Part shown: piece after piece, positions 6,177-42,249 of the stretch | Layout of the letters: each line of letters begins with the position of its first letter | Numbering within the stretch: the stretch's first letter is position 1 | NCBI GenBank assembly: GCA_036785375.1 | Contig: JAWMAR010000147.1 | Coordinates: 5,270,001 to 5,334,000 of the forward strand | Length of the DNA: 64,000 nucleotides | Reading direction: 5' to 3' | From: Leucoraja ocellata | Taxonomy: Eukaryota | Translations under genes and position numbers: made by a program | The notes under the pieces: generated by a model | The model's database searches: none | Seen by the model: the letters and a program-made list of their open reading frames with translations, nothing else | Told to the model about the DNA's origin: nothing

Positions 6177-6252
6177 CTTGAAAGCATATCCGGATTTAAT
6201 ACGATTCTGGATGGATTCGTGGTTAGCCTGTCGGCCACATATAACAGCATAC
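6177..6252 (-). CDS. RMDN3: Internal coding exon (76 nt) of regulator of microtubule dynamics 3 (PTPIP51), TPR-like region
   Basis: Minus strand ttctttgcatttcag|G TAT GCT GTT ATA TGT GGC CGA CAG GCT AAC CAC GAA TCC ATC CAG AAT CGT ATT AAA TCC GGA TAT GCT TTC AAG|gtaagg encodes (W)YAVICGRQANHESIQNRIKSGYAFK. From memory, human RMDN3 reads [26 protein letters not shown], closer than RMDN1 or RMDN2. Splice sites are canonical. Confidence 0.9.
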
Positions 6253-9060: not shown

Positions 9061-9628
9061 TCAAAAAAAACACTGATCTGAGAAACGTTAATGGAACATA
9101 AAGATAAAAGAGCAGAACAAAACGCATTGCAGACATTTTTGAGTGCTCCATTTTAGTGATATTTTACTTCGGAGTCACGTGAGTGACTACGTGAAGAACC
9201 CCGCTTACGACGCATGCGTGTCATATCGCTACACGCATTGCAACTTGTCGTTGTTGGGAGGAAGGACGTTCCTCCCAAACGGCAGGGTTTTTCGAACCTG
9301 CAATAGAAAGGTAAGGAAACGTCGTTTATTTCCTTACTTTTTCCTACAGGAAGGCTGTTTAAAGCTGGCAAGGGAGGAATCTGCAAGCAGCAGGTAGCCA
9401 GCAAACGGCCACTAGCAAGATAGTCCCTTAGCGGGAGTTGGTGCAACTTCAGCTGGCGGGGGAAAGAACGCCGACAGGAGTACCCCGTAGCCGTCAGCCC
9501 GACATCTCGGACAACAGCCCAAGGACCTACACTACGGGGTCCGTGGGGCTGCGGGAGGAAGGACGTTCCTCCCAAACGGCAGGCTGAGAACCAGCACAGG
9601 TAAGAACATTTTTCCTTACCTTTTCTTT

Positions 9629-9800
9629 ATAGACGTCGCTGCCGTTTCTGAACAGCAGCAGGCAGCCAGCAACGGACGTCAGCACAGAGCCATAGACGTC
9701 GCTGCCAGTTTCTGAACAGCAGCAGGCAGCCAGCAACGGACATCAGCACAGAGCCATAGACGTCGCTGCCATTTACTGAACAGCAGCAGGCAGCAACGAA
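9629..9800 (+). repeat. Tandem 63-64 bp repeat (about 2.7 units) in the DIRS 5' region
   Basis: ATAGACGTCGCTGCC...CAGCACAGAGCC starts at 9629, 9692 and 9756. Confidence 0.95.
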
Positions 9801-10035
9801 TGTCGGCACCAGCATCTCCCATAAGGGAGCAAGTGCCAAACTTCACCCCAAACGGGTAGAGGTGCCCGTGAGTACCGGGACCGTGAGGAGCGGCATGAGT
9901 ATATCGGGCGGCCGGGAGCGACCAGTGCCCGTAGGCATGGGGATCGGCTGCGGGAAATACCGCGTGCGACTAGTGCCCGAGAGCACCAAGGTCGGCAGGA
10001 GCGGTCCGATATATTAAAGCACCCGCGATCGACTA

Positions 10036-10818
10036 GTGCCCAAGAGCATGGAAGTTGGCTGGAGCGGTTGCTGGAGGAAATTCTCCAGAGTGGCAGGCTC
10101 CAGGATATGGAGGATAGCCACAGTGGGCAAAATATGTCCCACAGCAGTTTCCCATAAAGGGCTGCATGACATATCAGACTCCTCAAAGGAGGGTATTGAA
10201 GGTCTGACTGGGTCAGAATCTGAGCAGGAGATGGAGCCACCTTCCCCTATTGAAGGGGAGAAAAACAACCTGCTGGACATGGTGGGCCAGTACTTCCAGC
10301 AGGAACAAACTGGGAAGGATCTCGAGGACAGGATGGCTGCAAGTATTGAATATATGTCCACCCATCAACTTCAAGCTAATACTTTTGCTGAAGTGTTGGC
10401 AAGGCATTTACCCCGGGAAAATTGTGGTGCTCTTAATGTAGCCAGTGTTAACAGGTGCATTTGGAGACATGTTGGGCAGGCCATTAGGAGTCAGGATATT
10501 AAAATCCAAAATGCCCTGAAAGGTCTCACGGCGGGCATAACAGTCTTGGCCCGCACGTTAGAAAAGGTGGACATGACTAGTGACCACAAGGATGCCTTAG
10601 CACTATTTTGCAACGTGCAGTTTGAACTAAATAATATTAGAAAGATGGCCATTCAGCCAGCTCTAGACCCTAAGTTTGCTATACTATGTAAGCAAAGGGC
10701 TATAAGACCCCAAACCCTGTTATTTGGGGGAGACCTGTCCAAACAGGTTAAAGATTTGGATGAGGAGGCCAAGACTTTGGGGCTGATTAGAGCATCCAAA
10801 GGATATCTGGGGAAATGA
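10036..10818 (+). CDS. DIRS gag-like ORF1 (C-terminal part)
   Basis: PRENCGALNVASVNRCIW...RSQDIKIQ...LLFGGDLSKQVKDL is typical of DIRS ORF1; lies upstream of RT. Confidence 0.8.
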   Translation: MPKSMEVGWSGCWRKFSRVAGSRIWRIATVGKICPTAVSHKGLHDISDSSKEGIEGLTGSESEQEMEPPSPIEGEKNNLLDMVGQYFQQEQTGKDLEDRMAASIEYMSTHQLQANTFAEVLARHLPRENCGALNVASVNRCIWRHVGQAIRSQDIKIQNALKGLTAGITVLARTLEKVDMTSDHKDALALFCNVQFELNNIRKMAIQPALDPKFAILCKQRAIRPQTLLFGGDLSKQVKDLDEEAKTLGLIRASKGYLGK

Positions 10819-11044
10819 TATCAACCTTATGGGCCTCCTAAGTAGTTTTTATAATAATAGTACAAAGAATTGGAGAGAGGCCAGAGGTACCCAGCAGCAG
10901 CGTCCTTTTTTAGGGTTTGGCCCGGGACGACCACTGTGGAAGATGCCAAAGCCTCTACCTTCAGCATGTACCCAAACCTCAACCTCAAGGCCCTCCACAA
11001 CCACGAATGAAACCAAGAAAATAACTCAGTTACCACCGATAACC

Positions 11045-11530
11045 ATGGAGGTAGGTGAATCTGGGGCTCCAGAATTAATAGGGAGCACGGAAGTTGGAGG
11101 GACATTGCAACTTCATTTGGAAGCATGGTGTAATATAACTATGGACAGATATATCCTTAGCAGTATTAAGGGATATCTGATAGAGTTTCTACACAAACAA
11201 AACCCTCCAGTACAACATACACCAGACAGAATATACATGCTTACTAAATTGGAACAAGCTAAAGCTCACATAGAACTACAAAGATTATTCACTAAAGGGG
11301 TAATTGAACAAACCAAACCTGAACAACAGGAATTTGTCTCAAACATATTTATTAGAAATAAGAAAGATGGGGGTTGCCGTATTATTATTGATTTATCAAC
11401 GCTTAACAATGTTGTGCAATATGTTCATTTTAAAATGGATACTTTTAGCACTGCTAAAGAGTTAGTTTCAGCAGGCTACTTTATGGCAAGTATTGATCTT
11501 AAAGATGCTTACTATACAATACCCATCAGA
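11045..11530 (+). pseudogene. DIRS reverse transcriptase N-terminal half, truncated
   Basis: FVSNIFIRNKKDGGCRIIIDLSTLN...HFKMDT...MASIDLKDAYYTIP; no YxDD motif follows. Confidence 0.93.
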
Positions 11531-12489
11531 GGTCCAAATTTATACAGATGCATCAAAAGATTCAGTAGATAAAGTAGGAGTAGCATTTATTGTACCAGAA
11601 TTTCACATCAAAGTAGGGAAGAGGATCAATAATGAGGTCTCAGTATACACAGGTGAAATGATTGCAATATTGTTAGCAGTACTAGGCCTTTAAGGTCAGT
11701 TATTTGTTCAGATTCAAGTTTAGCAATAAAGAGTTTACAGCACAGTCATTCAGACAATAGACCAGACATTTTGATAGAAATACAACAAACACTATTCAGA
11801 ATTCAAATGATGGGGCTTACAGTCATATTTTTATGGGTACCAGCACACATTGGCATTAGAGGAAACAAAATGGCAGATAAGGTAGCAAAAGAGGTAACAA
11901 AAAGAAGTAAGATTGATTTAAGTATTAACATAGGTAAAACTGAAATCAAAGACATTATTAAGCAAAGACGGAAGGAAAGATGGCAAAAGCAATGGGAGGA
12001 AGAGCGGAAAGGACGGTGGTGCTTCAGAGTCCAGAGGAAAGTGGGAAAGATGAGATGTGCAGGAAAGAACAGAGAAGAGGAGACAGTGATTTCAAGAATT
12101 AGATTTGGACACACTGGTCTGAACAGTACACTTTTTGTAATGGGCAAGCATAATACAGGCAGATGTGAATACTGTGGGCAAGAGGAAACGATAGAGCATG
12201 TCATTGTACATTGTGAGAGGTATGAGGAGGAGAGAGAACGGATGAGTGAGCAGTTCAGAAAAGAAGGAGTACAATTTGATTTGGTAGATATTTTGCAAGG
12301 GAGTTCAAATAAGTGCTATCAAATCCTGATGCTTTTTCTTAGGGTAACCAATTTGTTCGGAAGGATATAGGTTATTAGAATATGTAATGGTGTTGTTTGA
12401 TCCACACTCCATGCCAGTTGGTGGCGGTAATGCACCAAAAAAGTTGTTTGCCAACCGCCAAAAAACACTATATAGAAGAAGAAGAAGAA
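11528..12489 (+). mobile_element. I-group (Nimb-like) LINE 3' fragment nested in the DIRS
   Basis: RNase H motifs IYTDASK, SVYTGEMIAI and WVPAHIGIRGNKMADKVAK; CCHC knuckle CEYCGQEETIEHVIVHC; 3' GGTGGCGGTAATGCACC and (GAA)n tail. Confidence 0.9.
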
Positions 12490-13380
12490 TTAATAGAGGC
12501 CATTTTTAATGGCCAATGGAGCTAACAATTGAAGCCATAAAAGAATTACAATGGTGGGAACACAATGTTAAGTATTGCTCCAACCCAATAGTTATTGACA
12601 ACCCGTCTGTGGTATTACAAACAGATGCCAGTGCAATTGGTTGGGGTGCAACTGATACCATCTCGAGCTGTGGGGGAGATGGAATATACAAGAAGCTAAC
12701 CTACTTAACACTAAGGGTATAAATAATTACTTAGAAATGTTAAGTGCGTTTTAAGTGGGCTAAAATCTTATTGCTCAGGAATGAAACAGCAGCATGTTAG
12801 ATTGCAGATAGATAATACCTCGGTGGTGGCATATATAAATCATATGGGTGGAAATATATCAACATCTTGTGATGAATTGGCAAACTCAATTTGGCAATGG
12901 TGTGTCCAAAGGAATATTTGGTTATCGGCTACGTATCTACCAGGGATACTAATTCAGTGGCAGACACCAGGTCACGAAAATTTATTGAAAGTACTGAATG
13001 GATGTTGGATAGAACGGTATTTGCTGAAATCACAGTAAAGTATGGAAGGCCGGATATTGATTTTTGCATCCAGGTTAAATCACCAGTTACCGAGGTATGT
13101 ATCATGGGAACCAGATCCTGGGGCAGAAGCTACAGATGCATTCTCACTGCACTGGGGGAAATGGTTCATTTATGCATTTCCTCCTTTTCTGCCTAATCAA
13201 TTAGGTACTAAGGGAAATTCAACAGGATTCGGCATCTGGGATTCTCATAGTACCTGATTGGCTTACCCAACCATGGTTCTCCGTGATACAACTTTAAGAC
13301 ATAGTCCTAAGTTGCTGGTGCATCCAGTAACTCAGGATAGCCACCCATGCCATAGAAAATATTGATTTATTGGGTTGTAG
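12490..13380 (+). pseudogene. DIRS RNase H and methyltransferase-like domains, frameshifted
   Basis: LQTDASAIGWGA, IDNTSVVAYINHMGG, FASRLNHQLPRYVSW...DAFSLHW...YAFPPF. Confidence 0.9.
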
Positions 13381-13399
13381 ACTCTAAAAGACCCGCTAC

Positions 13400-14352
13400 G
13401 GGACATGGGGCTATCAAAAGAACTGTGGACATGATCATAGCAGCACAAAGAAGGTCTACACAAAAACAGTATTTAGGTCATATTAGAAAATGGACTAATT
13501 ACTGCCATAATAACCATCTGGACCACAGAAATAAGGATGTTCCGGCGGTGCTAGAGTTTTCTCACCAGCCTGCACTATGAAGGACTTAGTTACAGCACTG
13601 TGAATAGTGCCAAAAGTACATTGTCAAGTTATTTGTGGCAAGGAACAGAAAAACAGTCTGTGGGATCACATCCTCTGGTAGTTAAACTTTTAAGAGGCAT
13701 CTTTAACACCAAGCCACCCAACACAAGATACAACCAAATCTGGGATGTAAGTGTGGTCCTGACCATGCTAAGGAATTGGTCGCCGGCTACAGGATTAACT
13801 GTGGACAAACTAACTAGGGAAATGGTATGCTGATGGCGCTGGTCACAGCGCAAAGGGTCCAGTTATTGCGAATATTAAGACTGGATGGCTTGACTATGGC
13901 AGCAGGAAGTTTGTTTTTTTGTGATCCAGGACCTTATTAAACAAAATAGACCAGGATCAGCGGGGCAGGTCATAGAATTTATGGCCTACCCGGAGGACGA
14001 ACGCCTCTGTATAGTGAAGCACGTTTTGTTATAAATTGAAAGGACAAAGGCTATCAGAGGCAAGGAAATGGCTTTTTTAATCAGCCATAAGAAACCGTAC
14101 CGTAGAATGTCAACTCAGACCATTTCGCGGTGGCTGAAATATGGGTTAAGAAAGGTGGGAGTGGACACTAACATATTTAAATCTCACTCCACGCGGGCTG
14201 CAGCTACATCCGCAGCAAAACGCCTTGATGTATCCATGGACCAAATCCTCAGGACTGCAGGATGGTCGTCGGAGAAAACGTTTCAGAAATTTTATAACAA
14301 ACCAGTTAGGAGTATAGGAACGTTTTCGGGAAAAATTTTAAGTTCTGTATGA
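13400..14352 (+). pseudogene. DIRS tyrosine recombinase, frameshifted
   Basis: N-terminal STQKQY...W...C, TAQRV, HSTRAAATS, GWSSEKTFQKFY (R-H-R-Y catalytic pattern). Confidence 0.93.
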
Positions 14353-14528
14353 TAATTTATCCCTGAAGAATACAAGGGTTATGATTTGAATTAATAAGAT
14401 ATTATTTATCATTTACGTTAAATAATTGGTATGAATGTTTTGAATATCATTAACAATTTCTCCCAAACTACCAAGGCAGTTGTGGAGCATGGACTCGTTC
14501 CACGGCATGAGGTCACAGAATTTTGAAA

Positions 14529-14641
14529 TCTTCACGTAGTCACTCACATGACTCCGAAGTAAAATAGTAAGATTAAACGAGAACTTACCAGTTTGAAGTT
14601 TGATCTTTATTTTATGAGGAGGAACGTTGAGGGAATACGTG
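14529..14641. repeat. DIRS internal complementary region (ICR)
   Basis: 14529-14566 is the reverse complement of 9160-9197 (1 mismatch). 14563-14641 is the reverse complement of about 14784-14862 (1 mismatch). Confidence 0.97.
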
Positions 14642-15759
14642 CCCTCCGCTCCCACCCTTGTATGGTCATATCTTAAACTGGTATCTCTTTAATAATCTTA
14701 CTATCTTAGGTCATTATAGTGTATCTGTGACCTCACACCGCTGCTTTGAAGGATGACACGCATGCGTCGTAAGCGGGGTTCTTCACGTATTCCCTCAACG
14801 TTCCTCCTCATAAAATAAAGATCAAATTTCAAACTGGTAAGTTCTCGTTTAATCTTACTATTAATTGTAACCTTTAGAAATATTTAATTACAGAATGCAA
14901 TGGTTCTTGCTAACAAATTATTCTTAATACAAAGTTACAATCACATTGCTGCTTACATCGCTTATTTAATCTAAGTTTTTAATGTAGATATTACATAAAA
15001 CTACATATACTATTATTTATGCATTGTTAATCAAGTCATAGAAAACATCTATACAAAACCTTCTCTAGTGAATCCACTGTTTCTGTCAATATGCTGCATT
15101 TGGTTAAGTCAATATTGAAAACGTTGAAACAGGAATGTCAGAACTCTACATGTAATCACTACAGACCAAAACAATAAAGATAACTCATTTCCACCTGCAA
15201 GAATACATGTGGGAGAAATAATTATGTTCTTTGCAATGAGTCAAGGTCACAAACTATAAATGTAGAAAAGACATGCACATAATGGGAAAGATGAATGCTA
15301 GAATTTATTAAAATAAAATTTAAGAAAATATATTGTAACCTTCAAAATATAAATGAAGCAATAGATGGATTGTAACTACAGGACAATACAAAATTATTTA
15401 TCAGACTATGTTTATCCTATTGAACCATACATATAGTTGTGGCATATGGGATTTGTCCACTGCTTTCCAAAATAAAAGTCAATTATTTAATATTTTAGAC
15501 ACACATTATAACATTTTGGAATCTAAAACAATTGTGAATTGAAACAGTTTTTCAATTCCATTTAAAATATACATACTCTTTCGCTAAAAGTTATATTACA
15601 CAAATGATTCACAGGTTAACAGTTCGAAAGGAAATGGTTTAGGTCAGAAAGCGACAGTTTTGTGGAAGTATAAAATCAACACACAGAAAAAATAAATCCC
15701 AACTAAACCATCAATCAAACAAGTATCTGGACGTAACAGAACAGCCTGGAAAATTCAAA

Positions 15760-34530: not shown

Positions 34531-35792
34531 ATATAAAACTATTTCACAATTTCCAAGATTTTAAAGAAATAAATTATTATTGATTTGGCAATAATGGGAA
34601 CAGAAATATAAAATTCCAGCATATTTTGTTTCCATGCAAGTGAATGAAAGTATTAGTATCTCATTATCTAAATCCAAAATATATTTCATATATGTGGCCC
34701 TTTGAAATGACTTTGGTTGTAAATGACCTCTACCCACAAATTATATTGCACATCACTGCCCTATAATGGTTGCGTGGGGGGGGGCGGCCTTCGGCGTCAC
34801 CCACACTAACCGCCCCCCACGCACACACACTAACCCCCCACCTTGATATTATATTATTATTAATTTGCTCCTTTTACCATATCCACTCACGCATAACCCA
34901 CAACTGCGCAGGCGCGGCTAGTGAGGGGGGAGGGGGTGGAGAGGGAGTGGGGTAGAGAGGGAGGGGGTAGAGATTGAGGGGTGGGGGGGGCTGGTTCTCG
35001 AACGCACTCCACCACTCACACATAGGTCCCAATATTCACCACTCCCTAGAGAGGGAGTGGGGGGGCAGAGATGGGTTGGGGCAGACAGGGAAGGCCGCCT
35101 CCCCTCCTCTCCTCCCTCCTCTCCATCCCCCCCTCCACCCCTCCCTCCACCCCTCCCTCTCCACCTCCCTCCCCCCGCCCCCCTCTCTCCCCCCCTTCTC
35201 TCTTTCACTGCCCTGGGGAGGGGCTAGAGAGGGATGGGGAGGGGGTAGAGGCAGCACCTACCCAAGTTGTAGAGCACAAGCCTCCCCATCAGGCGCCGGG
35301 CCCGAGCTAGGCTGAGGCCGGCGTGGTCCAGTATGATGCCCGGAGCGATTTGAGGATGATGAAAAACAGCGGAGGGCCGGCCGATCGTGGCTTCCGCAAG
35401 GGTAAGTGCACCCAGCAGCATGATAGACGATCGGGCGGGGGAGACGGAGAGGAGGTCATCCCCTGTGACGGCCACTTTTCAACTGCGCTTGTCGGCAGCC
35501 TCGCTGCGATAATGATCTCCGCCGCTATGTTGTAGAACTTCAAGAAGCCTAACGGAGCGTGCAGCACGACTTGATCATGCGTTCGGTGGTACACAAAAAT
35601 GCTGGAGAAACTCAGCGGGTGCAGCAGCATCAATGGAGCGAAGGAAATAGGCGAAGTTTCGGGCCGAAACCCTTCTTCAGACTGATGGGGGGTGGGGGGG
35701 AAGGAAGGAAAAAGGGAGGAGGAGGAGCCTGAGGGCGGGGGGGATGGGAGGAGACAGCTCGAGGGTTAAGGAAGGGGAGGAGACAGCAAGGG

Positions 35793-37185
35793 CTAGCAAA
35801 ATTGGGGGAATTCAATGTTCATGCCATCCGGTCGCAAGCAACCCAGGCGGAATATGAGGTGCTGTTCCTCTAATTTCCGGTGTTGCTCACTCTGGCAATG
35901 GAGGAGACCCAGGACAGAGAGGTCGGATTGGGAATGGGAGGGGGAGTTGAAGTGCTGAGCCACCAGGAGTTCAGGTAGGTTATTGCGGACTGAGCGGAGG
36001 TGTTCGGCGAAACGATCGCCCAACCTCCGCTTAGTCTCCCCGATGTAAATCAGCTGACATCTAGAGCAGCGGATGCAGTAGATGAGGTTGGAGGAGATAC
36101 AGGTGAACCTTTGTCGCACCTGGAACGATTGCTTGGGTCCTTGAATGGAGTCGAGGGGGGAGGTGAAGGGACAGGTATTGTATTTCTTGCGGTTGCAACG
36201 GAAAGTGCCCGGGGGAGGGGGTGGTATGGGAGGGAAGGGAAGAATTGACAAGGGAGTTGCGGAGGGAGCGGTCTTTGGGGAAGGCAGACATAGGGGGAGA
36301 TGGGAAGATGTGGCGAGTGGTGGGGTTACGTTGGAGGTAGCGGAAATGGCAGAGGATTATTTGTTGTATTTGCCGGCTGGTGGGGTGAAAGGTGAGGACT
36401 AGGGGGACTCTGCCCTTGTTGCGAGTGCGGGGATGGGGAGAGAGAGTAGTGTTGCGGGGTATGGATGAGACCCTGGTGCGAGCCTCATCTATGGTGGCGG
36501 AGGGGAATCCCTGTTCCCTGAAGAATGAGGACATTTCCGATGCCCTGGTGTGGAACGTTTCATCCTGGGAGCAGATGCGGCGTAGGCAGAGGAATTGGGA
36601 GTAGGGGATGGAGCCTTTACAGGGGGCAGGGTGGGAAGACGAGTAGTCCAGATAGCCATGTGAGTCAGTCGGTTTGTAGTGTATGTCGGTCAGAAGTCTG
36701 TCCCCTGCGATGGAGATGGTGAGGTCAAGGAATGGTAGGGAAGTGTCGGAAATGGTCCAGGTGTATTGGAGTGCCGGATGGAAGTTGGTGGCGAAGTGGA
36801 TGAAGTCAGTCAGATGTGTGTGGGTGCAGGAGGTGGCCCCAAAGCTGTCGTCAATGTAACGGAGGTAGAGGTCGGGGATGGGGCCCTGGTACGTATTGAA
36901 CAAGGATTGTTCAACGTACCCGACAAAGAGGCAGGCGTAGCTGGGGCCCATGCGTGTGCCCATAGCTACGCCTTGTGTTTGGAGGAAATGGGCGGAGTCA
37001 AACGTAAAGTTGTTGAGGGTGAGGACCAACTCCGCTAGGCGGAGGAGGGTGTCAGTGGCTGGGTATAGGTTGCTCCTCTGGTCGAGGAAGAACCGGAGGG
37101 CTTTGAGGCCATCCTGGTGGGGGATGAAGGTGTAGAGTGACTGGACATCCATGGTGAAGATGAGGGGGTGAGGGCCTAGAGAGTG
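35793..37185 (-). pseudogene. Penelope RT plus GIY-YIG endonuclease, 5'-truncated, one frameshift
   Basis: MDVQSLYT, QTQGVAMGT, YLRYIDD, FLDLTI; Cys-rich linker; NLIYCIRC...IYIGETKR...RFAEH...GMN. Confidence 0.95.
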
Positions 37186-37490
37186 TAATGCGCGGAGTGT
37201 AATAATCTCCAACGCACCCCCTCCTCGTGGAACCCCTCTCGTAAAGTCTCGGCTCTGGAACTCTTTATCCAGAACTGCCACCGCGACGTCAACCGCCTCA
37301 ACTTCTCCACTACCGTCTCACGCCTGGGTTGCTTGCGTCCGGATGGCATGAACGTTGAATTCTCCGAGTTTTGCTAGCCCTTGCTGTCTCCTCCCCTTCC
37401 TTAACCCTCGAGCTGTCTCCTCCCATCCCCCCGCCCTCCGACTCCTCCTCCTCCCTTTTTCCTTCCTTCTCCCCCCCACCCCCCATCAGT

Positions 37491-37518
37491 CTGAAGAAGG
37501 GTTTCGGCCCGAAACGTC
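37491..37518 (+). ncRNA. Minimal type I hammerhead-ribozyme-like core in the pLTR
   Basis: CTGAAGA-A-GGG(TTTCGG)CCC-GAAAC-GTC. Helix III has no loop (palindromic ACGT) and helix I is weak. Penelope pLTRs are known to carry minimal hammerheads. Confidence 0.55.
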
Positions 37519-38037
37519 GCCTATTTCCATCGCTCCATAGATGCTGCTGCACCCGCTGAGTTTCTCCAGCATTTTTGTGTACCTTCGATCCTCCAGCATC
37601 TGCAGTTCCTTCTTGAACGCTTGATCATGCGTTCAACGGCTTAAATCCAGAGCCGGTGGGGGGGGGGGGGGAGGGCGACTGGGCCACGTAACTCGCAGCT
37701 CGTGGCTAGGAGTTGAAAACTCTGCGCAGCTGGCCGCGAGGAACAAAGGCATTGTGACGTCATCAGCTCGCTTCAGCAGTTACAATTGGAAAAGATGTCA
37801 GATCGGTGAACAATTTTAGTAAAAAATTAGATTGGTAAACAATTTTAGCAATTTTAGTAAAAAACACGGGAAATAATGAATCAAATTTTCAGATGAGGGG
37901 ATTTTTGAAATTATGAAGTATATCTCTAAACATTTCACCGTTACGTCGGGTTTTCGAGGAGATGTAATCACATGTGAAAAAACACACACACGCACACAGC
38001 CACACACACACATCCAAGATCAGAGTTGTATAGGTTA

Positions 38038-39095
38038 CTAGACCATGTGCAGACCCGTTGGGGCTGTTCCCCCAACGTGCGGTTGAAGGAGGGGGGGGCG
38101 GCATGCGGCGTTACACACATTAACCACCCCCACACACACATTAACTACCCCCCCGCACACATGCTAACTACCCCCCTTATTAGGGGGCGGAGAGGAAGGA
38201 GGGGGGGAGAGGGAGGAGGGGCGAGGGGGGGACAGGGAGGGGGGTAGGGATGGGGGGAACAGGGANNNNNNNNNNNNNNNNNNNNNNNNNNNNNNNNNNN
38301 NNNNNNNNNNNNNNNNNNNNNNNNNNNNNNNNNNNNNNNNNNNNNNNNNNNNNNNNNNNNNNNNNNNNNNNNNNNNNNNNNNNNNNNNNNNNNNNNNNNN
38401 NNNNNNNNNNNNNNNNNNNNNNNNNNNNNNNNNNNNNNNNNAGGTTTTTAATCAAAGGACTTGCGAGAGGCACGACTGGCAGCACGTTGGGTTTGCAGCG
38501 GGAGGGAGGGAGTGATGTGACTTGACTCGCTCCCAGACGGAGTAATGGCCGCCAGGGCCACATTCCCATCGCGTGCCCCATGCGACGATAACGGCCGCCA
38601 TGTTCTACCATCGGGCGGGGGAGACGGAGAGGTTTCAGAAGCAAGCCGGTGACTGGCTATAACCTGCTGTGATCTCCCGATCTGCAGAACGCTCGTTCTT
38701 TCCATAGATCCTCTAGCTGCTATAGGATGGAGCGGGCGGGCGGGCGTGGGAGTCCAGCTGCGCGTGGTGTGGCGCGAGCGTATTTGGGCTGGGCGCAGGC
38801 AGCGGGGCCAGGATGCAGTTGGGCCTCGATTGGTGGGCGTGTGGGCATTGAGACGTCAACGGCTCAAGTGGCAATTTTATTTTTTTTGAAGTGAGTTTTG
38901 TGAACAATTTTATTCAAAATCTGGTGATGTAATTGACCAAGGAGTGGATTTCTGAACACATAAGATAAATCCCTACCGAAATTGTAAAGATCTCCGTGTT
39001 TTTGCGTCTGGTTTTCGCGGAGATACATTTAAAAGGTAAAATGCCTTACACCCACACACACAAACACACACATAAGAGTTTTAAAAATATATAGA
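38038..39095 (-). mobile_element. Non-autonomous Helitron D, both ends present
   Basis: Minus strand A|TCTATATATTTTTAAAAC...hairpin...CTAG|T, an A|T target with no TSD. Confidence 0.9.
38266..38441. other. Assembly gap (176 N) inside a G-rich Helitron tract
   Basis: Run of N. Confidence 1.
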
Positions 39096-39146: not shown

Positions 39147-39655
39147 CCAAGTGCAGCCCGGTTGGGTCTGCTCCCCCAGAGCAAGGTTCCACCACTCACC
39201 CGTTCCCCCAACGCAAGCCGTTCCTCCAATGGAATATTGTACTGATAGCCCCCAACCGCACAGGTATGGCTCATTTCTCCTCATCCCCCAGCACTCCTTC
39301 TCCTTTTCATCCTCCCTCTTCAATCCCCAGAGACGAAGGGAGGTGGAGAGGGAAGGGTGGTGAGTTCCATGCGCAGAAAATCGTAAAAACGCGTAGGCGC
39401 AGGTCGGTCCTGTAGGCAGTCAGTCCACTTTTTAAAAATCTTAAAGATTGGTCTCCTCTCCTGTGGACATGCGCAGCACCTTGCGCGCTTGCTGCGCAGC
39501 ACACATGCGCGTGGTCCTCGGTGCAAAGGCAGAATTTCAGCTGCCTTAATTGTAAGTGAAGTCTTGAGTGAGTATAGTTACGCATATGTACTGTGGATGA
39601 AAGGCACAGGAGAATTATGCCTACCTAAGATCGATTATTAAAATAATAACCATTT
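39147..39655 (-). mobile_element. Degenerate Helitron E
   Basis: CCAAGTGCAGCCCGGTTGGGTCTGC is a variant of the terminal hairpin; TAAGATC...TAAAATAATA at the other end. Confidence 0.65.
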
Positions 39656-39727
39656 ATAAATACTGAATTTAGTAAATGAATTGAAAATCTTTACTATATA
39701 TATTCAATATATAACCTTTTTATAATT

Positions 39728-40657
39728 TTAGTCAGGGTAGGCACTGCCTACCTTGATGGCACGTGCCTGGTAGAGAGGGAGAGGGCGAGGGAGGGGGGTA
39801 GAGAGGGAGGGGGGTGGAGAGGAAGGGGGTAGAGAGGGAGGGGGTGGAGAGGGAGGGGGGTAGAGAGGGAGGGGGTAGAGAGGGTGGGAGTGAGGGTAGA
39901 TAGGGAGGGGGCATCTCCCTCCTCCACCCTTCCCCACTTCCCTCCTCTACACCCCCCCATCTCCCCCTCTACCACCCCATTTCCCACCCCATCTCCCTCC
40001 TCATTTCCCTCATCCTCCTCCCCTCACTCCCATTCCCTGCCCCAGGACCTACCCAGGTCGTAGAGCAGCGCCAGGGCCTGGAACTCGGCCTGCTTCTCGT
40101 CCTCAGCCCAGCCCTGTCTATAGACACCAGCCATCAGCTCAGCCGTCGCCTGGGCTCCAGTGCAGGCCACGACTTCATCTCCAGGCTCGTCCTTGACCCT
40201 GGATCATGGCTCGTCCTTGGTTCAAGTGGAGGCTTCTTTCTTGGACCCGTCCCAAACCCCGGGCTCGACCCTCACTCTAGTTCCAGCACCACCCTCCCCA
40301 CCAGTCGTCGGGCGCCGGCAGCCGCCACCACTCCTCATTTACCGCGAGTGTTGGAGTGCCCCTCCGTCCCAGAGAGTCCCGCCCTGCCTTACGAGTGCAT
40401 TGTGACATCACTCAGGTTTTTTCCCGAAATGAGTGCGTTTTCGGGCTGTTTTAAAACTTCAAACGATTAATAACTTCGGAAATATAGGCGGGAATGCGTC
40501 AGGAATATGTTTATCACCTTGACAGGGAAAATGTGAGTAGGATGTGTGAAAATGGGAAGGCTGTAGCCTAGTGTTTGGAATAAAATAGGAATTAACCAGA
40601 TTCACACACACACACACAGAGCCACAAACAAGACAAAAGCATTTAGTATTATAGAGA
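39728..40657 (-). mobile_element. Non-autonomous Helitron F with captured gene fragment
   Basis: 5' A|TCTCTATAATACTAAA; 3' GGTAGGCA-G-TGCCTACC hairpin then CTAA; (CA)n and TTGTGACATCA subterminal blocks as in the other copies. Confidence 0.8.
40053..40338 (-). pseudogene. Captured exon-like frame ending in a SAC3D1-like segment and splice donor
   Basis: ATG plus 94 in-frame codons with two TGA, ending VYRQGWAEDEKQAEFQALALLYDLG|gtaggt. From memory, human SAC3D1 has RQPAFQGLFLLYNLG. Confidence 0.6.
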
Positions 40658-42249
40658 TAATTTATATAGCTGTGGATCTTGTACTGATCTTATATTTTGA
40701 ATAAGCATTCTTCCTCTTCTTGAGAGAGTCAGTTGTGGCTCAGTAGGCAGCATTTGGCTTCAATCATTATGATTAGCATTCAAGGCCTCCTTCAGAATCG
40801 GAAGGGAAAAATTCTAGGCTAGCACATGCAGTTGTGAGAAAGCACAGCAGTACCAGAATGTCATCCTTTGCAAGAGAAGTTAAATTGTCTTGTCCGCCCT
40901 TTCAAGAAGTTTGTAAAACTCAACAGAACTAATTCCCAGCCAGGGATGAAGAATCCTGACCTGAAATATCAGCTGTTCAGTTCCTTCCATTGATGCTGCT
41001 TGACCTGCTTCTTCCAGCAGCTCTTTTTTTTTAATCTGTTCCACGTGTCTACTATTTGAGTCTACTACTCACCAACCCAAATTCCCGTTTGCATTTATGT
41101 TAATGCATTCCAAACCTATTTTGAATCTTTCTTTCATTATCTCTACCTGATTCATATTTCTGAACTTAAAACAATAATCAGCTTATCTCCATCCCAATAC
41201 TATCTACCCTTCCCCACTTTCAGAACATGTAAGCATATACACGTGAATCAATTTTTTTTGAGTGCTTCTTTATTCATTAGCATATGGCACTGAGACTAAT
41301 GTCACAATTAATATCAATAAGTTTCAGTCTTTTAGTTTTCTTCTTTGTTCCTGAAATTCACCTTCAGCCTTTCTCCTATCTTTGCCATAGATTCCAACAT
41401 TATTTCTGACAATACTGTATACCTATTTAGTATTTGCTCCAGTCTTGGATCATGGAAAAACAAAATTTGACTTGTATGTGACTATATTTCCAATGGATCT
41501 AAACCAACTCAAAATAAATTTACTGCTGGTGCTAAGCTGAGATAACAATTGTAAATTATTGTAATGGTTGTAAATGTTATTTGGGTGGTGGTAGCACAAT
41601 CAAACATATTTAATGGACATTTGTAAAAATATTTTTATATCTACATGCTATGACAGAATAATTTAAAACAACAGTACTTATAATCAAGATACATTTACAT
41701 TTACAAGCCTATTTTCATTCATTCTTTCCTATTATCACATATGTTTTGTTTTGTGCATCTAGAATGGGAAAACTTATATCTGATATATCAGATATATTTC
41801 TGATATATCTGAATTGGAACTTTGCAGGTCAAATTTTTATTATTTTTTCCTTGACTTAAACATCTAATGGATTTGGTAATAACATTCTACTTCTTTTCAA
41901 GAAAACTTGGAATCCAGCTTTAAGTCTTTGTCCACCATATCATCACATCTGTTACACATTCATGTAAGTCCTTGACTTTCATTTAAATGTGCAAGTATAT
42001 TACTTCAAACAAAAGGACAGAACCAAAAAAAAATGTAAGATAATAAACAAGCCTTAATTATTTTCTATATTACAGAATTGACAATATTTTGGAAGAAGTT
42101 GACTGGCTGTAAAACAATTTTGGCCATATGAAAATCACCAAAAAATGCTGCATAAATTCAAGTCTTGGAATAAATTTTACAATGTCTAGCCTCAATATCA
42201 AATTCTCCAACTTTTTATTTATGCTTTTTCTGTCCGCATCAGAACCTGT

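Follow-up and report, generated by a model that had tools for sequence, protein, structure and literature searches.

A decayed SAC3D1 exon fragment and its splice donor within a high-copy non-autonomous Helitron family of a skate genome

The stretch of Leucoraja ocellata DNA analysed here (hereafter, the window) spans 64,000 nt and was compared with the species' own genome assembly, designated G000. Its minus strand carries part of a gene that the analysis assigns to the RMD1-3 family and that we take to be the paralogue RMDN3; as the original prediction had stated, the element described below lies in sense to this host gene. The next annotated-type host exon, with a phase-2 acceptor, maps to 6177..6252 (minus strand). 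In the mirror copy of the window (C147:5691640-5776397), the preceding 61-nt RMDN exon, which ends in phase 2, stands upstream of the element; in the window, this 61-nt exon was found neither between the element and position 6252 nor in the next 60 kb. The window RMDN copy is without two upstream exons within those 60 kb. Mirrored copies of genes and repeats, 97-99% alike and on one contig, were seen on C147 and also on C360, C162, C456 and C8, which suggests haplotypes joined head to head. Elsewhere in the window, positions 9150-14700 hold ORF pieces resembling gag, RT/RNase H and recombinase, presumably of a DIRS-type retrotransposon, and this stretch is interrupted by a LINE piece.

Three Helitron-type units were recognised on the minus strand. 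The first, with type-A ends, extends over 39147..40657: its 5' TC stands at 40657 after an A (A|TC at 40658/40657), while the family 3' end, reaching to 39147, has a weakened hairpin and has lost the terminal CTAG. The second, in tandem with it (38038..39095), shows a 5' TC and a full 3' end with hairpin and CTAG|T. The third is truncated (34760..38037, inner boundary approximate) and is split by a reverse-transcriptase element (35585-37619). The long terminal arms of this retroelement are inverted and 96% alike over ~230 nt, and its target duplication measures 15 bp.

Specifically, the first unit is non-autonomous and holds, at 40345-40047 on the minus strand, an internally deleted and decayed piece of SAC3D1, a housekeeping gene, followed by a splice donor. 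Reading in the sense of the element, the 5' arm contains the predicted CRE-like motif TGATGTCA (40410-40403), whose full palindrome is present in 7 of 16 independent sister copies; a 14-mer similar to it recurs in the second and third units. The SAC3D1-derived left piece (40127..40345, minus) comprises a decayed AVKEW segment and a skate-specific EPGDEV repeat. It is followed, after a ~240-nt deletion common to the subfamily, by the SAC3D1 exon end (YRQGWAEDEKQAEFQALALLYDL-G; 40053..40126, minus) and by the phase-1 donor GTAGGT (40047..40052, minus). The G-rich stretch downstream (39912..40046, minus) is common to all copy classes and is likely to be the start of the SAC3D1 intron. A private insert at 39362..39768, with no strand assigned, occurs in the window copy and its mirror copy and was unmatched among the other loci fetched. 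At window position 40300 the mirror copy bears an 18-nt insertion which, judged by eye, was apparently copied from window 41735-41715, ~1.4 kb upstream. In addition, the exon end and donor probably occur a second time, in the third unit, as a minimal remnant (LYNLG|GTAGGT; 35252..35277, minus, 26 nt). It matches another locus (L024) in 22 of 23 nt, with an E value of 4e-4 within the window, and the sequence downstream of it matches three donor-bearing copies (L119, L138 and L139).

An ATG-led frame of 95 codons, broken by two TGA tentatively attributed to decay of CGA, had been predicted at this site. The reading of the frame (40338-40051, minus) and its two TGA were recovered, as were its end ...QAEFQALALLYDLG (...ALLYDLG) and the GTAGGT that follows at 40052-40047, all read directly in the sequence. 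The idea of a meaningful ATG-led ORF did not survive comparison with 18 sister copies, in which the ATG position (40338) reads ACG in 14, ATG in 3 and AGG in 1. The proposed origin of the stops had to be abandoned as well, the first TGA corresponding to GGA in 16 of the 18 sisters and the second to GGG in 12. On these alignments the ATG of the window copy is a CpG-decayed ACG. Because of this, and because the stops derive from GGA and GGG, the 95-codon frame is without meaning.

Taken alone, the window piece gave no Pfam match and no relevant PDB match. At the exon end, the predicted similarity to SAC3D1 was confirmed, with 21 of 28 residues identical to a Rhinoraja SAC3D1-like protein (P0009) and 17 of 27 to a second skate protein (P0001). 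The fullest copy of the family, L029, provides a 74-aa frame that is 79% identical to Amblyraja SAC3D1 (E 5.5e-29; Rhinoraja, E 1.7e-28) and matches the SAC3/GANP domain model PF03399 (E 6e-6). Its cargo corresponds to residues 23-286 and ends at the exon end, with the start codon absent; residues 1-22 were unmatched in any copy in searches with the N-terminal 75 aa and the whole protein. At the junction within the window frame, ~240 nt of the SAC3 core present in L029 have been lost by internal deletion. The upstream KDEP-repeat part had been suspected of making the frame chimeric. This suspicion proved unfounded: skate SAC3D1 proteins have the same EPGDEVGAW-type repeat inside the domain, and the KDEP part is therefore SAC3D1 too. 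Across the skate proteins examined (P0001-P0009), the SAC3 domain includes a Gly/Ala/Glu/Pro repeat whose length varies among species and gene models.

A search of the genome with the SAC3/GANP model returned a four-exon gene on contig C35 and seven dispersed matches that also align to the window on both sides of its gap. The matches on C35, the best to PF03399, were considered as candidates for SAC3D1 and were set aside, their exon translations reading as a gene that we take to be GANP/MCM3AP. Four protein-level probes of the assembly failed to locate native SAC3D1: the Pfam model, the complete protein, its last 160 aa (best E 0.5) and its first 75 aa. A 30-nt motif of SAC3D1 exon 2 likewise had no match there at up to 3 mismatches. 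A GANP-like gene is present while the native SAC3D1 start and second exon escaped five probes, and an incomplete assembly is a likelier cause than loss of the gene.

The exon boundary was approached from the transcript side. In run X16, from a related skate and taken by guess to be RNA, a 1047-nt contig follows L029 up to its position 1813, the donor; beyond that point the contig encodes SDQALHHALQ, the next residues in two skate SAC3D1 proteins (P0004 and P0009). The sole GT that fits this contig places an intron at G|GT in phase 1. The prediction of an exon end with a phase-1 intron at this codon is thereby upheld, inasmuch as the skate SAC3D1 transcript contig departs from the copies exactly there.

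These data bear on the idea that a retroposed fragment of SAC3D1 mRNA had been inserted into the Helitron, the GT after it being incidental. Bat Helitrons are known to carry retrogenes (PMC4224331), and the intron side is seen here from a transcript contig. Against such an origin, all copies lose the SAC3D1 match at the exon end and then show a consensus donor, exon-2 letters occur nowhere in the assembly, and the transcript contig goes on differently from that very base. We consider retroposition extremely improbable. A capture from genomic DNA, which we favour because the donor and the apparent intron start are kept, would have occurred as a single event, either by read-through past a 3' end or by copying from genomic DNA.

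A DNA search of the species' own genome yielded 1705 first-look candidates, and a second search 1146. All 40 candidates that were scored had E values below 1e-91 and, the window and mirror copy excepted, 78-82% identity; the window stretch is therefore a repeat. A 24-mer from the exon end occurs at 848 places with up to two mismatches (control, 0), a lower bound that mirrored duplicates in the assembly nevertheless inflate to some extent. For the analysis of decay, 78 loci were reduced to 46 independent copies by dropping 1 without an anchor, 16 identical repeats, 1 without a donor and 14 near-duplicate partners. These 46, best hits and not a random draw, comprise 6 full copies, 24 with a small deletion and 16 without the core; in copies chosen by the exon-end motif alone, the core is missing in 25 of 30. 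Reads across the deleted-type junction were found in RNA runs of a second skate, and this subfamily is therefore common to both skates.

Signs of selection on the cargo were sought in its last 23 codons across the 46 copies. Mismatches outside CpG sites were spread evenly over the three codon positions (4.3, 4.8 and 4.6%; p 0.91), and 9 of the 46 copies carry a frameshift within these codons. The pN/pS ratio of 0.69 is not below that of a neutral simulation (0.53 +/- 0.07). Of the 46 copies, 40 retain the donor GT, which is kept no better than its neighbours, with 3 of 86 changed against 4.8 expected (p 0.28). Selection on cargo or donor was accordingly rejected by the codon-position, pN/pS and GT-change tests. 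Choosing best hits favours conservation, and the neutral result is therefore no artefact of that choice. Cargo and donor decay neutrally. A functional SAC3/GANP-domain gene would be expected to have a start codon, an unbroken frame across the domain and purifying selection, and the copies show no such combination.

Carriage by a Helitron, as originally predicted, was borne out by A|TC and hairpin-CTAG|T ends and by a 3' end matching that of RepHel elements. In a set of 76 copies, which fall into two terminal types, 3' ends were recovered in 36, of which 30 have CTAG|T behind a hairpin; type-A 5' ends were recovered in 21 cases, of which 14 read A|TC. The 3' hairpins fold at -7.5 to -9 kcal/mol. 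The genome contains 120 matches to the RepHel model PF14214. Two of the six regions fetched hold long RepHel ORFs, of 1764 and 1851 aa, followed by the type-A 3' end. These ORFs contain Rep and PIF1 domains, the PIF1 match being truncated and narrowly below the cut-off. Over 38-39 nt, the 3' ends of the RepHel regions are 87-97% identical to those of two copies of the window type (L006 and L013), and within the regions fetched their 5' ends do not match the 5' ends of the SAC3D1-carrying copies. The RepHel elements would mobilise the family in trans. The 1764- and 1851-aa frames, on G000:C2974 and C2153 (L151-L154), are accompanied by several tandem 3' ends, and these elements were possibly active recently.

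A carrier of another kind, namely a different repeat or a segmental-duplication family lying by chance inside Helitron ends, would be compatible with the position of the window copy in a composite array, with its missing CTAG, and with the recovery of 3' ends in 36 of 76 copies. It would leave unexplained why copies dispersed over many contigs retain A|TC and hairpin-CTAG|T ends, spaced similarly from the cargo, and why they have their 3' end in common with RepHel elements. This makes a non-Helitron carrier highly improbable.

Exonisation of the window copy would make the element an alternative first exon, joined by splicing to the RMDN exon at 6252, and would give a truncated or regulatory transcript. 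In its favour, the donor is intact and in sense to the host gene. Exonisation would also agree with the likely use of the donor of a sister copy, described below, and with the behaviour of the bat element HelibatN3 (PMC4778049). As had been foreseen, a join of the donor to this exon would be out of frame, phase 1 meeting phase 2, and the joined frame misses the RMDN protein; the ATG, as noted, reads as a product of CpG decay. Among the listed ends in four RNA runs of a related skate, no junction at the window-copy donor, including one to the RMDN exon, was seen; the RNA comes from another species, and 2 of 807 reads are at least 99% alike to the window copy, which is thus hardly tested by these runs. 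We judge exonisation of the window copy very unlikely. Instead, the window copy is likely to code for nothing and to be neutral cargo in a phase-2 RMDN intron.

Different indications were obtained for a sister copy, L014, from an oligo-dT run (X6) of a related skate, a species other than that of the window, ~5% of which was read. When this run was aligned to L029, 4 of 43 reads stopped exactly at the donor and continued into a second repeat family. Four X6 reads carry a CCGA duplication which, among 91 copies, only L014 has, and the upstream end in seven X6 reads lies 2 mismatches from L014 and at least 8 from each of the other 90 copies. The loose end matches in 30 of 30 letters the sequence after TTTTTCATAG at G000:C4:17902198. 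There, on the contig and strand of L014 and 96,375 nt past its donor (G000:C4:17805822-17902198; L014, L165 and L175), an AG acceptor follows a pyrimidine run. The second repeat usually has CG or TG before the join point, with AG in 1 of the first 100 listed of its 1021 copies. The joined donor-acceptor form is absent from the assembled DNA. A second alignment of X6, together with X7, X9 and X10, on the window copy gave no loose end at the donor among the matches listed, and in run X10 the read depth continues through the donor.

Therefore, we regard as likely a GT-AG splice at the locus orthologous to L014, joining the Helitron-borne donor to an AG in the second repeat 96 kb away; it is represented by four reads of one run, whose linkage to the CCGA reads is inferred. 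The spliced RNA is likely to be polyadenylated and non-coding. Inside the 96-kb intron, on the opposite strand, lies a frameshifted TLR7-like fragment (G000:C4:17879598-17880303, minus; L172 and L173; E 1e-24 to TLR7). A bolder proposal would see the whole family as an exon trap: several hundred live SAC3D1 donors would have been spread, the CRE-bearing arm would start transcription, and some copies would give conserved spliced RNAs made entirely of Helitron sequence. L014 would be the first case, with donor and acceptor kept in two skate species and a 96-kb intron over a broken TLR7-like gene on the opposite strand. At present we hold this to be rather doubtful.

In conclusion, it is highly probable that the window contains one decayed member of a non-autonomous skate Helitron family which, at hundreds of places, carries the greater part of a coding exon of SAC3D1, likely the first, along with its splice donor. 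The fragment was likely picked up once, from gene DNA, and rides as neutral cargo, and the L014 counterpart is likely spliced. After the capture, amplification of the family may have preceded the divergence from the skate sampled for RNA; deletions and new ends would have come later, and the donor would be used occasionally. As decayed cargo, the window copy is unremarkable. The lead worth pursuing is the likely L014 splice, whose reads are a first read-level sign of donor use in the skate family. Hundreds of SAC3D1-like fragments could, in addition, mislead gene annotation and read mapping.

Compared with the skate SAC3D1 gene (XP_032902980.1, XP_055514366.1 and XP_078280094.1), the cargo agrees in sequence, in the lineage-specific repeat and in its exon end. 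It differs in having no start and no second exon, and in its stops, frameshifts and 80-codon deletion. Gene capture by vertebrate Helitrons had been called best documented in bats; it is documented in Xenopus as well (PMC12001565). Our search of the literature, confined largely to openly accessible papers, returned no report of Helitron exon capture in skates or cartilaginous fishes. In Xenopus laevis, 17 of the 19 captures by Heli1Xen1 are 5' coding fragments, and the captured frog fragments amount to 64 insertions in all, with at most 17 each (PMC12001565), whereas the skate fragment occurs at no fewer than 848 places. Capture by read-through past the 3' end is shown for Helraiser (PMC4778049).

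The closest known system is HelibatN3 of Myotis. It carries the NUBPL first exon and its donor in about a thousand copies (PMC4224331), and lends this donor to host transcripts, which are spliced to downstream or cryptic acceptors (PMC4224331, PMC4778049). The skate family resembles HelibatN3 in being non-autonomous, with TC and hairpin-CTRR ends at AT sites, and in holding at high copy number a 5' gene exon, the native donor and an apparent intron start. It is unlike HelibatN3 in that its cargo, ~260 codons at the fullest, is without a start codon and has lost the core in most copies; its likely donor use is represented by four reads, assigned to the counterpart of sister copy L014, and its lineage is that of cartilaginous fishes. 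Cartilaginous fishes thereby join bats and frogs as hosts of high-copy exon capture by Helitrons.
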